A stretch of 64,000 nt of DNA from an uncultured Rickettsiales bacterium (GTDB lineage: Bacteria; Pseudomonadota; Alphaproteobacteria; Rickettsiales; UBA8987), in assembly GCA_964588995.1 (NCBI GenBank), contig CAZPQM010000002.1:59459-123458 (forward strand), read 5' to 3'. Under the pieces are notes generated by a model. That model was not told the DNA's origin and did no database searches. It was given only the letters and a program-made list of their open reading frames with translations. Below, piece by piece: positions 5,724-11,195 of the stretch (position 1 is its first letter; each line of letters starts with the position of its first letter). The translations under genes and the position numbers were made by a program.

Positions 5724-6188
5724 TTACACCTGCGATTGCAGGTAGTTCTGCTCACCCAGATCCCGAATCAGCCCCAATTGCTGTTCCAGCCACAGATAGT
5801 GCGACTCCTCTGAAATAAGAATCTGCTGTAGTAAATCTTCCGTCCCCTTATCGTTGACCGTATCGCTATGGGCGAGGGCGGCACGCAAATCTTCAATGGC
5901 TCCTTTTTCCATTTCAAAATCAGCCTCTAACATTTCGCGTACTGTTTCACCAATATGTAACTTACCTAAATCCTGAAAATTCGGTAATCCACCTAGAAAC
6001 AAAATGCGTTGTGCTATTTCATCGGCATGCTTCATCTCATCAATGGATTCTTCATATTCCTTATCACCCAGTGTGTGATATCCCCGATGTTTTAACATTT
6101 TTGCATGCAAGAAATATTGGTTAATCGAGGTGAGCTCATTTTTGAGAATGGTATTGAGATGGCTGATCATCTTCTTATCGTTTAACAT
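5724..6188 (-). CDS. bfr: Bacterioferritin
   Basis: ELTSINQYFLHA, EEEsidEMKHAD-type ferroxidase segment (EESIDEMKHAD), LFLGGLPNFQ, EESHYLWLE. Confidence 0.97.
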   Translation of the reverse strand: MLNDKKMISHLNTILKNELTSINQYFLHAKMLKHRGYHTLGDKEYEESIDEMKHADEIAQRILFLGGLPNFQDLGKLHIGETVREMLEADFEMEKGAIEDLRAALAHSDTVNDKGTEDLLQQILISEESHYLWLEQQLGLIRDLGEQNYLQSQV

Positions 6189-6691: not shown

Positions 6692-7969
<1,278 letters not shown>

Positions 7970-8068: not shown

Positions 8069-9547
8069 TTACGCCATCGCCTCAAGCAGCTTTGCCAGCG
8101 CGCCGTATTTCTGCTGGCCGGACTTGCGGCCATCATAAATGATGCGGTCCTCATAGCCGGAAATCCACAGTGCTTCGGGGTTGCGCTTGGCGATGATCAA
8201 ATCACCTTGGCGCGACGTATCTGGCGTGCGGTGCAGCTTCAACACCACGATGCCATCGCCAAGGATGGACTGAAATGCTTGCGCTACCGCATGATCTTCA
8301 ATCCCAAACGCTGTCGGGTCAAAGCCATCAATCACACTGACCACTTCCATTTTGCCGTCTTCGGTGGACATCGCGTAACGCGATTTTTCTATGCCGGAGA
8401 GGCCCTTTTGCGAGTCTTTATGAATTTTCCATGCGGTTTCAACCGGCACGGCGAAGGTTTTGTAGCCTTCAATCTCACGGCACTGGAAATAATAGTGATT
8501 ATTTACGCCAATGCGCTTCAACTCGACCTGCAGCCTGCGGAGCGCCTCGGCGGAATCGTTTACTGAGTCAATGATAGGCGTTTGGTTTTCAAGCGTGACA
8601 AAAGGCCGTGACCGTAAGCCCCGGATAGCTTTTTCGGTTAGCGGCAGTCGTTCAAAATGTCCGGTCTCTTTTGGGATATAGTTGCCGTTCTCATCCAGCT
8701 TGAGCAACTCGTCTGCATGGGTAAAATGCGTCATGAAGGCGAGGTTCACTTCCGGGTGAATCTCATGGAACAGGTCAATCATCTCAAGAAAATTCGCATC
8801 AAATCGTTCCGGGAAAAAGGCGAGCTCTTTCGTACCGATACGGATCGTGCGCACCCCGGCATCGGCAAGCCCATCGAGGTAGAGGAATAGGTTCGTATTC
8901 GAGAGCACCATTGGGTCCCCGCCCGAAAGCAGGGCCTCGCGGATAGGGAACATCTCTTCCCCGTTTTCAAGGTAGGATTTGTCATTGCCGTAATCACCCA
9001 CTTTGCGGTTATGCTCGCGGATATAGTTGGCGATCTGGCTGATCGAGGCGATGTCTTTTTCCGTTTTGGAGGTCAGGAAGTCCGAGCGGTAGCAATAACG
9101 GCACCAGGACGAGCAGACACGCACAACATAAAGCAGCACGAGTTCATATTTATGTAAGAGGCCAGGTACGGGGGAGTATTTCAGCTGGTTGGACGGGTCT
9201 TTTTCTCCGGATAAATCGTCCATCTCTTCCGGCCTCGCTTTGATTAGGTTCGCGATGGCCGTACTCTTCATGGCGAGTTCCATATAGTAGCTGGTCGCAC
9301 GGGGAGGCAAGCGATCCGAAACACCGGCCTGCTTGATTTCCGCAATCTCCTGATCGGAATACAGTTTAGCGCCACCGCGAGCGACATAGCGTTCATAGCC
9401 CGCAATGTCATGCGCGATATAGCGGTTAAAGCGGCTTTCTTTAATTCGCTTTGCCGCATTGGATAAGACTTTTTTATCCCGCTTATTGCGGACTTTCGCT
9501 TTCACGGGTTGTACCCGGGTTTCGGTGCGTTCAAGCAGTTCTGTCAT
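8069..9547 (-). CDS. KamA-family radical SAM/PLP 2,3-aminomutase-like protein
   Basis: C145xxxC149xxC152-Y-R154 (CSSWCRYCYR), LLSGGDPM, THFTH, YYFQC, probable PLP Lys in STEDGK; 492 aa, longer than EpmB. Confidence 0.88.
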   Translation of the reverse strand: MTELLERTETRVQPVKAKVRNKRDKKVLSNAAKRIKESRFNRYIAHDIAGYERYVARGGAKLYSDQEIAEIKQAGVSDRLPPRATSYYMELAMKSTAIANLIKARPEEMDDLSGEKDPSNQLKYSPVPGLLHKYELVLLYVVRVCSSWCRYCYRSDFLTSKTEKDIASISQIANYIREHNRKVGDYGNDKSYLENGEEMFPIREALLSGGDPMVLSNTNLFLYLDGLADAGVRTIRIGTKELAFFPERFDANFLEMIDLFHEIHPEVNLAFMTHFTHADELLKLDENGNYIPKETGHFERLPLTEKAIRGLRSRPFVTLENQTPIIDSVNDSAEALRRLQVELKRIGVNNHYYFQCREIEGYKTFAVPVETAWKIHKDSQKGLSGIEKSRYAMSTEDGKMEVVSVIDGFDPTAFGIEDHAVAQAFQSILGDGIVVLKLHRTPDTSRQGDLIIAKRNPEALWISGYEDRIIYDGRKSGQQKYGALAKLLEAMA

Positions 9548-10908
9548 GCCAGTACCTCACTAAGACTCTCACTCAGTTTTGTGATCAATTCATCCATGTG
9601 TTTTTCTTCAATGATAAAGGGCGGAGCAATCAGAATATGCGCGCCATTTTTACCATCGATCGTACCACCCATCGGATAAATCATCAGGCCACGCTCCATC
9701 GCTGTCTTTTTTATTTTAGTATGAATGGCCGACTCCTGCGGGAACGGATCTTTCGTTGCACGATCCTGTACCAGCTCTAGCCCAAGAAATAGCCCGCTGC
9801 CCCGTATGTCTCCGATATGCGGATGTGCGCCAAAAGCATCCATCAATTTTTGCTTTAGTTTGTTTCCCTGCTCCTGAACGCGCGCGACCAGATTATCTCG
9901 CTCAATGATCTGTTGCACTTTCAGCGCGGCGGCGCAGGCCACCGGGTGAGCGAGATAGGTATGGCCGTGCTGGAAAAAGCCGGAGCCGTTATAGATAGCA
10001 TCAAAGATTTTATCCTGACAGAGTAGCGCGCCAATCGGTTGATAGCCGCCGCCGAGCCCTTTGGCAACGGTGATCATATCCGGTACAATGTCATCCGTTT
10101 CACAGGCATAGTAGCTACCGGTGCGTCCCATACCGCACATTACTTCATCCAGAATCAGCAAGACATCATATTGATCGCAAATCTCACGAATGCGCTTCAG
10201 ATAGCCGTCAACGGCAGGAACGGCACCCATGGTAGCGCCGACCACGGGTTCGCAAATGAAGGCGGCAATGTTGCTGGCTCCTTCATGCAGGATGGTCTCT
10301 TCCAGCCGATTCGCTACGCGCTGCCCGTATGCGTATTCCGTTTCATCCTCACGCTTGTCTCTGTACGGGTAGCAAGGCGGGATATGGATCATATCCACCA
10401 GCATCGGAGAAAATTGGGCGCGCCTCCAGCGGTTGCCACCGGCGGATAAGGCGCCGATCGTATTACCGTGGTAGCTTTGCCAGCGGGCTATAAATTTACT
10501 TTTCTCCGGTTTGCCGATCTCTACAAAATATTGCCGTGCCAGCTTGAGGGCCGATTCGACTGCTTCTGAACCTCCTGAAACAAAATAAACATGATTCAGA
10601 CCTTCCGGCGCTAGCCGTGTTAAATGATCCGCTAGCTGTTCCGCCGGTTCATTGGTGAAGAAGCCTGTATGAGCAAAGGCGATCGAATCGACCTGCTGGT
10701 GAATAGCGTCGCGAACCTCATCATTACTATGTCCGAGACAGGAAACTGCTGCACCGCAACACGCGTCTAAGTAGTATTTGCCATTTTGGTCAATAATGTA
10801 GACACCTTCACCCTGAGTTGCAGTAGGGTAGTGGCTGTGTGTATGGCGGTGGAAGACACGAGTATCAGGGCGATTGTTAACGGGAATAGAGGCAGCAACA
10901 TTTGCCAT
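9544..10908 (-). CDS. Class-III (omega-type) PLP aminotransferase
   Basis: YLDACCGAAVSCLGH, SGGSEAVE, SYHGNT, LILDEVMCGMGRTG, VAKGLGGGY, HGHTY; ATGA overlap with the KamA-like gene; start ATG 10908 (ORF extends to TTG 10950). Confidence 0.93.
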   Translation of the reverse strand: MANVAASIPVNNRPDTRVFHRHTHSHYPTATQGEGVYIIDQNGKYYLDACCGAAVSCLGHSNDEVRDAIHQQVDSIAFAHTGFFTNEPAEQLADHLTRLAPEGLNHVYFVSGGSEAVESALKLARQYFVEIGKPEKSKFIARWQSYHGNTIGALSAGGNRWRRAQFSPMLVDMIHIPPCYPYRDKREDETEYAYGQRVANRLEETILHEGASNIAAFICEPVVGATMGAVPAVDGYLKRIREICDQYDVLLILDEVMCGMGRTGSYYACETDDIVPDMITVAKGLGGGYQPIGALLCQDKIFDAIYNGSGFFQHGHTYLAHPVACAAALKVQQIIERDNLVARVQEQGNKLKQKLMDAFGAHPHIGDIRGSGLFLGLELVQDRATKDPFPQESAIHTKIKKTAMERGLMIYPMGGTIDGKNGAHILIAPPFIIEEKHMDELITKLSESLSEVLA

Positions 10909-11195
10909 AATGAAATCCTTAGCAGCAGCGTATTTGCTGCTATCATACAATGTAAAATCGGGAAATCAACTTATGACTGTGCGCTGCAACAAAGAGTGAT
11001 GAGACAGGGAGCCGGCATCGGCGTGTGTGAGGAGCGGGTTGTGTTGCGATGATAGCCGACCCCCTGATCTCGCATTTGCTTTGCAGCAAACGACCTCACG
11101 CATTTGGTGTGTGGTCACTAAACCTCTCTCCCAATTACGTGTTGCATCCGCACGCTAACATAAGCAAAAGTGTAAATCCAGAAAAAACTATATCT

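Follow-up and report, generated by a model that had tools for sequence, protein, structure and literature searches.

To our knowledge, few specificities have been characterized among the radical S-adenosylmethionine (SAM)/pyridoxal phosphate (PLP) aminomutases: lysine (with two stereochemical variants), glutamate, and arginine. The lysine 2,3-aminomutase (LAM) of Clostridium subterminale (PDB 2A5H), reportedly described by Lepore and coworkers in 2005, grips the epsilon-amine of lysine with D293 and D330, and a glutamate 2,3-aminomutase is said to have been characterized by Ruzicka and Frey in 2007. Lysine fermentation (KamA, KamDE, Kdd, Kce, and Kal) starts with a KamA-type enzyme and ends with an enzyme that cleaves beta-keto acids (BKACE), giving acetoacetate plus an acyl coenzyme A (acyl-CoA); a further BKACE, a 3-oxoadipate:acetyl-CoA acetyltransferase, was reportedly found by Bastard and coworkers in 2014. 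The CORE cycle includes an engineered beta-alanine transaminase and BKACE module (Nat Commun 2025, PMC11961710). Here we analyze a 64,000-nucleotide stretch, called the window, of an uncultured Rickettsiales bacterium (assembly GCA_964588995.1, contig CAZPQM010000002.1, positions 59,459 to 123,458). It encodes a divergent KamA-like radical SAM/PLP aminomutase homologue of 492 amino acids (K; 8069 to 9547, minus strand) and a class III (omega-type) aminotransferase of 454 amino acids (AT3; 9544 to 10908, minus strand). We consider it probable, though narrowly so, that K, from an unnamed deep branch of the KamA superfamily, is an amino acid 2,3-aminomutase of the radical SAM, PLP-dependent type. 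With similarly modest confidence, we propose a route in which an alpha-amino acid is converted to a beta-amino acid by K, to a beta-keto acid by AT3, and to acetoacetate plus an acyl-CoA by a BKACE encoded elsewhere in the genome.

By sequence, K resembles a KamA-type aminomutase yet appears to belong to none of the named families, as it fails the cut-off of each. It scored 106.2 bits on the KamA family model TIGR00238 (cut-off, 199.2), 93.4 on AblA (TIGR03820; 525), 91.9 on EpmB (TIGR03821; 369), 98.1 on arginine 2,3-aminomutase (TIGR04468; 600), and 87.9 on glutamate 2,3-aminomutase (TIGR04368; 650). In a six-frame search of the genome, where it was the sole KamA-family match, it appeared on TIGR00238 as two pieces of 58 and 41 bits. 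Radical SAM domain PF04055 also remained under threshold (22 bits, E value of 2e-4; gathering score, 29.5) despite the presence of the motif and fold. LAM 2A5H was the only PDB sequence match of K, with the single sequence and the family profile alike. The AlphaFold model, built from a 34-sequence alignment (pLDDT, 83.6; pTM, 0.84), also had 2a5h as its best Foldseek match (E value of 3e-18; target-normalized TM score, 0.66), the next match having an E value of 9e-6. K combines a LAM-like fold with a CxxxCxxC motif and a carboxylate-binding arginine two residues past the third cysteine.

The active site was compared with a LAM reference identical to 2A5H chain A over 416 residues, using hhalign and MAFFT. 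Both programs align C145, C149, C152, and R154 of K to C125, C129, C132, and R134 of LAM, which identifies the [4Fe-4S] motif CSSWCRYC (C145-x3-C149-x2-C152; 9092 to 9115, minus strand) and the counterpart of the alpha-carboxylate binder R134 (R154 codon, 9086 to 9088, minus strand; invariant). In our family alignment A1, C149 and C152 are invariant and C145 occurs in at least 90% of rows, falling short only because of an X derived from ambiguous bases in the homologue from Micavibrio sp. TMED27, which contains several such residues. The SGGD and NQ SAM motifs are likewise common to K and LAM.

A sequence-only reading, made by eye, had placed these residues together with R357, S394, and K399 at the positions given here and proposed that both lysine-binding aspartates are replaced. 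Alignment to 2A5H bears out the positions and the replacements. YYFQC-R357 of K falls on YYIYQC-D293 of LAM in HMMER, hhalign, and MAFFT alignments; the hhalign match continues ungapped to A392/V328 and ends at residue 392, and MAFFT, like the ungapped extension of that match, sets S394 on D330. D293->R and D330->S are found in 63 of 63 K-family rows of the MAFFT alignment; R357 (codon 8477 to 8479, minus strand) is invariant in A1 and in all K-family rows shown, and S394 (codon 8366 to 8368, minus strand) is invariant. The reading had also stated that glutamate 2,3-aminomutase carries basic or neutral residues there, and this proved correct for a bona fide sequence from Paraclostridium benzoelyticum (696 bits on TIGR04368, above the cut-off of 650): its YYIFHS-K and YII-N-APKGKGK correspond to D293->K and D330->N. 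Charge is thus reversed at both lysine-binding positions in that enzyme (K/N) as in K (R/S), while the same positions are D/D in LAM and in two short KamA-family relatives and D/E in Escherichia coli EpmB. The two enzymes differ in setting, as glutamate 2,3-aminomutase comes from anaerobes and the organism of the window has cytochrome bd and a UbiH-type hydroxylase.

In these alignments, neither the lysine-binding aspartates nor the zinc site, both of them LAM hallmarks, is kept in K. The zinc ligands Cys268, Cys375, Cys377, and Cys380 of LAM are replaced by S, N, or D or fall in gaps throughout the K family, in which the three cluster ligands are the only family-wide conserved cysteines. Overall identity to LAM is about 20 to 28%; K has two fewer residues in the glycine loop and a different N-terminal region, and its C-terminal domain (containing NPEALWISGYEDRIIYDGR) is specific to the family and highly conserved. 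K399 (codon 8351 to 8353, minus strand), suggested earlier as the probable PLP lysine, is invariant and starts a strand after a two-residue turn in the AlphaFold model, as the LAM lysine starts the strand that follows the specificity strand. However, ungapped MAFFT alignment puts E401, not K399, at LAM K337, and the role of K399 is likely rather than demonstrated because its match to K337 requires an APGGGG loop shortened by two residues. The first 50 residues of K (9400 to 9547) form a low-confidence, strongly basic tail (e.g., KVRNKRDKK; RPKKKK in relatives), which is present in one group of K proteins, clade A, and absent from another, clade B.

These features make it highly improbable that K is an ordinary lysine 2,3-aminomutase delivering beta-lysine to AT3. 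LAM is indeed the closest solved structure, and several family members bear the JGI name "lysine 2,3-aminomutase" (others are called "hypothetical" or "KamA family radical SAM protein"), but every member has lost both aspartates that bind the epsilon-amine, with arginine taking the place of one. Further, the lysine-type equivalogs are far under their cut-offs (AblA, 93 versus 525; EpmB, 92 versus 369), a long tree branch parts K from LAM, and kamDE, ablB, and epmA do not adjoin K. Assignment as EpmB was rejected on the differing residues and the lack of any EpmB-type gene in the genome; efp lies on the same contig, outside the window. A further alternative is another chemistry: K may keep the fold and perform a radical SAM/PLP reaction other than a 2,3-amino shift or act on an amine that is not an amino acid. 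The score of only 106 bits on the KamA model, the new C-terminal domain, the missing zinc site, and the shortened loop are in line with this idea, which we nevertheless regard as improbable, given the invariant carboxylate-binding arginine, SAM motifs, and candidate PLP lysine and a set of partner enzymes that is chemically sensible for a beta-amino acid.

The 63 K-family sequences came out as a single group in a maximum-likelihood tree, a very long branch with 100/100 support setting them apart from LAM, glutamate 2,3-aminomutase, and EpmB, which group together. K belongs to an unnamed clade, large and deeply branching, that is sister to the KamA family. A search of a 90%-identity protein database returned 3,024 proteins at an E value of ≤0.001 among 8,000 candidates scored, some of which could be KamA relatives of other kinds; all 120 matches listed were 62 to 78% identical to K. 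K loci from species-level genomes (n = 61) belong to metagenome-assembled genomes labeled Rickettsiales, Maricaulaceae (Oceanicaulis), Micavibrio-like bacteria, and some Burkholderiales. Among 301 genomes sampled evenly across the class, a K orthologue was found in this genome alone, and 20 of 61 close relatives, across 18 genera, carry one; K is an accessory gene with a patchy distribution.

The settings of K relatives vary: some stand alone, some lie between fliI and ctrA, and some are beside a class I/II aminotransferase. In Albitalea terrae S-16, K is in an operon with LysR and class I aminotransferase genes; in Marinicauda pacifica, M. algicola, and Oceanicaulis sp. LC35, it is on its own. 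Two long K-like proteins, of 635 amino acids (L159; G354:C90:1-9000) and 685 amino acids (L160; G337:C26:3000-13000), are about 40% identical and keep the R/S pair. The cluster around the former holds AT3, a Fic-like gene, a BKACE gene, a predicted holo-ACP synthase, a 3-hydroxybutyrate dehydrogenase, and a 674-amino-acid pentapeptide-repeat protein. The gene for the latter has a LysR gene before it and serC and a serB-like phosphatase gene after it; these last two were rejected as partners of K and taken for housekeeping neighbors, serC passing its own equivalog cut-offs.

AT3 is a clear class III aminotransferase (PF00202, 351.8 bits against a cut-off of 30.5; NF005685, 757.6 against 485, from a model to which no specific function is attached), with a candidate PLP lysine, by analogy with other class III enzymes, at K283 in a TVAKG motif (codon 10060 to 10062, minus strand). 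K and AT3 are codirectional open reading frames (8069 to 9547 and 9544 to 10950 at their longest), and the ATGA overlap described from sequence is present as described, the stop TGA of AT3 sharing 9544 to 9547 (minus strand) with the start ATG of K (junction GGCATGACAG); at other loci with listed gene coordinates this overlap was not seen. Across the 61 K loci, aminotransferases, of two unrelated kinds, are the only recurrent functional neighbors. Orthologues of AT3 (60 to 67% identical) adjoin K in 11 of these loci, and a class I/II aminotransferase of about 435 amino acids, c1, does so in at least 17, accompanied in the Burkholderiales pair by a divergent LysR regulator. The two kinds of neighbor fall on opposite sides of a tree branch with 100/99 support. 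The c1 partner belongs to clade B (loci L030 to L036 from Burkholderiales and L037 to L058 from Micavibrio-like bacteria, around position 6000), and the K-AT3 pairing is confined to one clade. The earlier proposal that aminomutase and aminotransferase are coupled is supported, with AT3 as a genuine functional partner: the genes adjoin in 11 of 61 loci and co-occur without linkage, although the pairing is limited to one clade.

In seven loci, K has a BKACE gene (PF05853) within a few genes of it. That of this genome lies on another contig, outside the window (C10:58048-58926), is 57% identical to the K-linked BKACE, and matches PF05853 at 202.6 bits (cut-off, 24.8). K, AT3, and BKACE were each searched for in the 61 close relatives, and their association was assessed by Fisher's test. 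For K (20 genomes) and AT3 (15 genomes), the counts of both, K only, AT3 only, and neither were 14, 6, 1, and 40 (P = 2.3e-8); for AT3 (15) and the BKACE orthologue (15), the corresponding counts were 14, 1, 1, and 45 (P = 1e-11), although these P values overstate the association because related genomes do not count as independent samples. Thirteen relatives carry the full set of K, AT3, and BKACE. The exceptions are mostly incomplete or fragmented assemblies (G303, G312, G339, and G355), and K without both partners is also found in four assemblies that are 98 to 100% complete (G316, G330, G337, and G344). The genes are clustered in three genomes (G318, within 4.5 kb, G323, and G354), an AT3-BKACE operon lies far from K in G317, and the three are fully dispersed in G311, G351, G353, and the genome studied here. 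A shared pathway is well supported, since the genes are coinherited even without linkage, and the suggestion from sequence that a beta-keto acid is formed gains independent support from this BKACE subfamily.

In this BKACE, LHLHVRD and GFENN line up with the Kce (2Y7D) motifs IHLHIRE and GFEDN, and what we take to be the Kce zinc ligands (His-x-His and Glu) are retained. At the position of Kce E14, most orthologues have R or K, and at that of D231 all have N (R and N in this genome); in Kce these two residues presumably bind the substrate amino group. If so, BKACE and K would display the same charge inversion.

We propose the following sequence of reactions. (i) K would move the alpha-amino group of a nonlysine amino acid to C-3, the substrate side chain most likely being anionic and held by the invariant R357 in place of LAM D293. 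(ii) AT3, predicted to be on the same mRNA, would convert the resulting beta-amino acid to a beta-keto acid. (iii) BKACE would combine the beta-keto acid with acetyl-CoA to give acetoacetate and an acyl-CoA two carbons shorter. (iv) Acetoacetate could be activated by an AtoDA-like CoA-transferase and cleaved by thiolase; genes for both, and a Bdh-like gene, are present in this genome. The AT3-BKACE-K cluster of G354 also encodes, two genes 3' of its K-like gene, a 3-hydroxybutyrate dehydrogenase above its cut-offs. These last genes would suit acetoacetate disposal and speak against a biosynthetic direction, from acyl-CoA and acetoacetate through the beta-keto and beta-amino acids to an alpha-amino acid. 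In principle, each of the three reactions (aminomutase, transaminase, and BKACE) can run backward, but we consider this direction very unlikely, as the patchy distribution of K (1 of 301 genomes in the class sample and 20 of 61 relatives) also fits catabolism better.

The proposed route resembles lysine fermentation in its KamA-type start and its BKACE end and differs in that a transaminase would replace the KamDE and Kdd steps. It also differs in the loss of acidic residues, D293 and D330 of LAM giving way to R and S and E14 and D231 of Kce being aligned with R and N. The CORE module shares the condensation by BKACE of a class III transaminase product (beta-keto acid or aldehyde) with acetyl-CoA but is synthetic and acts on a nonnative substrate, whereas the K/AT3/BKACE combination is natural and conserved and has an aminomutase upstream in the route. 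In the literature searched, most subscription journals lying outside it, no description was found of this family, of a 3-aminoadipate or beta-glutamate transaminase route, or of a BKACE associated with an aminomutase.

An anionic or hydrogen bond-accepting side chain is argued for the substrate because an invariant arginine occupies the D293 position. The sequence-only reading had concluded that the substrate is not lysine and may be acidic (e.g., glutamate); replacement of both aspartates supports the first part, and glutamate becomes one candidate among several, since gene content points at least equally to 2-aminoadipate. The latter, passing through 3-aminoadipate and 3-oxoadipate to succinyl-CoA and acetoacetate, is our leading candidate, although a tentative one. 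Glutamate, which has a precedent and would pass through beta-glutamate and 3-oxoglutarate to malonyl-CoA and acetoacetate, is possible but doubtful, and other substrates, including alanine/beta-alanine and zwitterions such as diaminopimelate, share the remainder. 2-Aminoadipate is favored because an operon-like run of genes outside the window should make it. On contig C15 (38409 to 44146), a saccharopine dehydrogenase-family gene resembling lysine dehydrogenase (LysDH) comes immediately before an L-piperideine-6-carboxylate (P6C) dehydrogenase gene (717.6 bits on NF050084, whose cut-off is 730; next-best model, 298), with putA next in line. LysDH-like enzymes and P6C dehydrogenase convert lysine to 2-aminoadipate in some alphaproteobacteria, and the C15 run is, from its homology, probably such a module. 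Of the 13 genomes with the complete K/AT3/BKACE set, 10 have P6C dehydrogenase, compared with 16 of 48 others (P = 0.006); 18 of 22 clade B K genomes have it as well. In addition, NCBIfam lists BKACE activity on 3-oxoadipate (NF053568). If 2-aminoadipate is the substrate, 3-oxoadipate and succinyl-CoA would be shared with the lower beta-ketoadipate pathway, which is entered from aromatics rather than from an amino acid.

On this basis we advance, as a tentative extension that falls short of probable, that K is a 2-aminoadipate 2,3-aminomutase of aerobes which, with AT3 and BKACE, would make up the last part of a so far undescribed lysine-catabolic branch. Lysine would pass through piperideine-6-carboxylate, 2-aminoadipate, 3-aminoadipate, and 3-oxoadipate to succinyl-CoA and acetoacetate, and in clade B, K and the class I/II aminotransferase would feed 3-oxoadipate to an ordinary CoA-transferase and thiolase. 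Such a branch would in effect repeat the logic by which clostridia ferment lysine, with the charges inverted.

Several observations weigh against the proposed route or against this choice of substrate. First, two acidic residues near S394 and K399, namely, E396 and E401, are invariant in A1 and could neutralize R357 or bind a cationic group; E396, two residues past S394, could lie in the pocket, and the pair could alter the ranking of substrates. Second, the BKACE of this genome fails both the Kce model (NF052387, 116.4 bits against 382) and the 3-oxoadipate:acetyl-CoA acetyltransferase model (NF053568, 90.9 against 350), by which placement in a known specificity group was ruled out. Third, P6C dehydrogenase is absent from at least three complete K-bearing genomes (G302, G331, and G344) and from all four Oceanicaulis genomes and is present in 16 relatives without the three-gene set. 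Fourth, 19 of 22 clade B genomes have no BKACE at all and none of the 22 has an AT3 orthologue, and Oceanicaulis carries K without an orthologue of AT3 or BKACE; the product of K therefore need not always enter the proposed route. The one Oceanicaulis BKACE considered was rejected as an orthologue, being 25% identical and located in a leucine degradation-like cluster. There (G382:C1:2045000-2061500), a gene of a different BKACE subfamily follows MerR-like, acyl-CoA dehydrogenase-like, and two methylcrotonyl-CoA carboxylase subunit-like genes, neighbors identified by eye from their sequence starts, and stands roughly where a 3-hydroxy-3-methylglutaryl-CoA (HMG-CoA) lyase gene would be expected.

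A fifth point concerns a YdfG-like short-chain dehydrogenase/reductase (SDR; NADP 3-hydroxy-acid dehydrogenase, NF007829, 323 bits), encoded between AT3 and K in three loci (L003, L004, and L006; in the first two, a DASS anion symporter gene adjoins BKACE) and a few genes 3' of K in Oceanicaulis (L019, L020, and L022), an unrelated lineage. This gene would also fit a malonate-semialdehyde intermediate. The same three enzymes could thus serve a small neutral or a zwitterionic substrate, a reading we rate as unlikely. Were it alanine, beta-alanine would yield malonate semialdehyde, to be converted by BKACE to formyl-CoA and acetoacetate or by the YdfG-like enzyme to 3-hydroxypropionate; an engineered beta-alanine transaminase with BKACE does work on malonate semialdehyde in vivo, with YdfG as a competing sink (PMC11961710). 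However, deamination of alanine to pyruvate is trivial, an invariant arginine in place of D293 would have no obvious role, and this genome has no YdfG-like orthologue (best identity, 34%). Nor is K needed for beta-alanine, and a role as its source for CoA synthesis was ruled out, as the genome has panD (52% identical to that of E. coli) and panC. Were it diaminopimelate, R357 would hold the distal carboxylate and E396 the distal amine, and BKACE would release gamma-glutamyl-CoA. The invariance of E396 and E401 beside S394 and K399 speaks for this reading, as does the occurrence of K in predatory Micavibrio, consumers of bacterial cell walls, but gene context offers no pointer to diaminopimelate.

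The distribution of K without partners raises a further alternative, namely, that the beta-amino acid is an end product (e.g., beta-glutamate as a compatible solute or building block), with aminotransferases supplying or recycling the substrate and the link to BKACE being indirect. K occurs alone in marine Oceanicaulis and Marinicauda, and clade B couples it to an aminotransferase largely without BKACE (19 of 22 genomes). Methanogen osmolytes made by glutamate and lysine 2,3-aminomutases offer a parallel, according to a preprint that cites Tunckanat et al. 2022 (bioRxiv 10.1101/2025.11.21.689712). An end-product role is nevertheless quite unlikely: in the order of the window's organism, AT3 and BKACE track K tightly even when unlinked and form clusters or operons, an enzyme that cleaves beta-keto acids would have no role in osmolyte synthesis, and no AblB-type acetyltransferase gene adjoins K.

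The remaining genes around K and AT3 are unrelated to them. K is flanked by ubiH, an ABC permease gene, bacterioferritin, ArsR, and a standard aspartate transaminase gene, and AT3 is flanked by genes for a UPF0126-type membrane protein, HIT, and purH. Profile searches of the window proteins confirmed that efp, epmA, ablB, and kamDE do not adjoin K, as had been noted; for kamDE and kdd, absence refers to adjacency only, no genome-wide search for them having been made. The aspartate transaminase gene (6746 to 7969, plus strand; 606 bits on NF004769, cut-off 617) is convergent with K, about 100 bp separating their 3' ends. It was rejected as a partner and is probably a chance neighbor because it is not kept beside K elsewhere and the class I/II enzyme that does adjoin K is only 27 to 30% identical to it. 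The likely start of AT3 is the ATG at 10908, with AAGGA 7 nucleotides 5' of it. A weak sigma-70-like match (TTGATT-16-TATGAT; 10942 to 10969, minus strand) lies ahead of AT3 and is at chance level in the consensus scan; promoter and terminator scans around K and AT3 gave no matches beyond chance expectation. A riboswitch or leader RNA 5' of AT3 was rejected, there being no Rfam match at an E value of ≤5 between 7900 and 11400.

The K family is large, strongly conserved, and unnamed and occurs in oxygen-using organisms, among them the cultured carriers Marinicauda, Oceanicaulis, and Albitalea terrae. Oxygen-tolerant aminomutases for acidic amino acids are wanted for beta-amino acid production and for proposed synthetic carbon fixation cycles (bioRxiv 10.1101/2025.11.21.689712). 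If the proposed route is correct, K would represent a new aminomutase specificity and AT3 a natural beta-amino acid transaminase, and an orphan BKACE subfamily would gain a physiological role. It would possibly also explain how some bacteria dispose of lysine-derived 2-aminoadipate.

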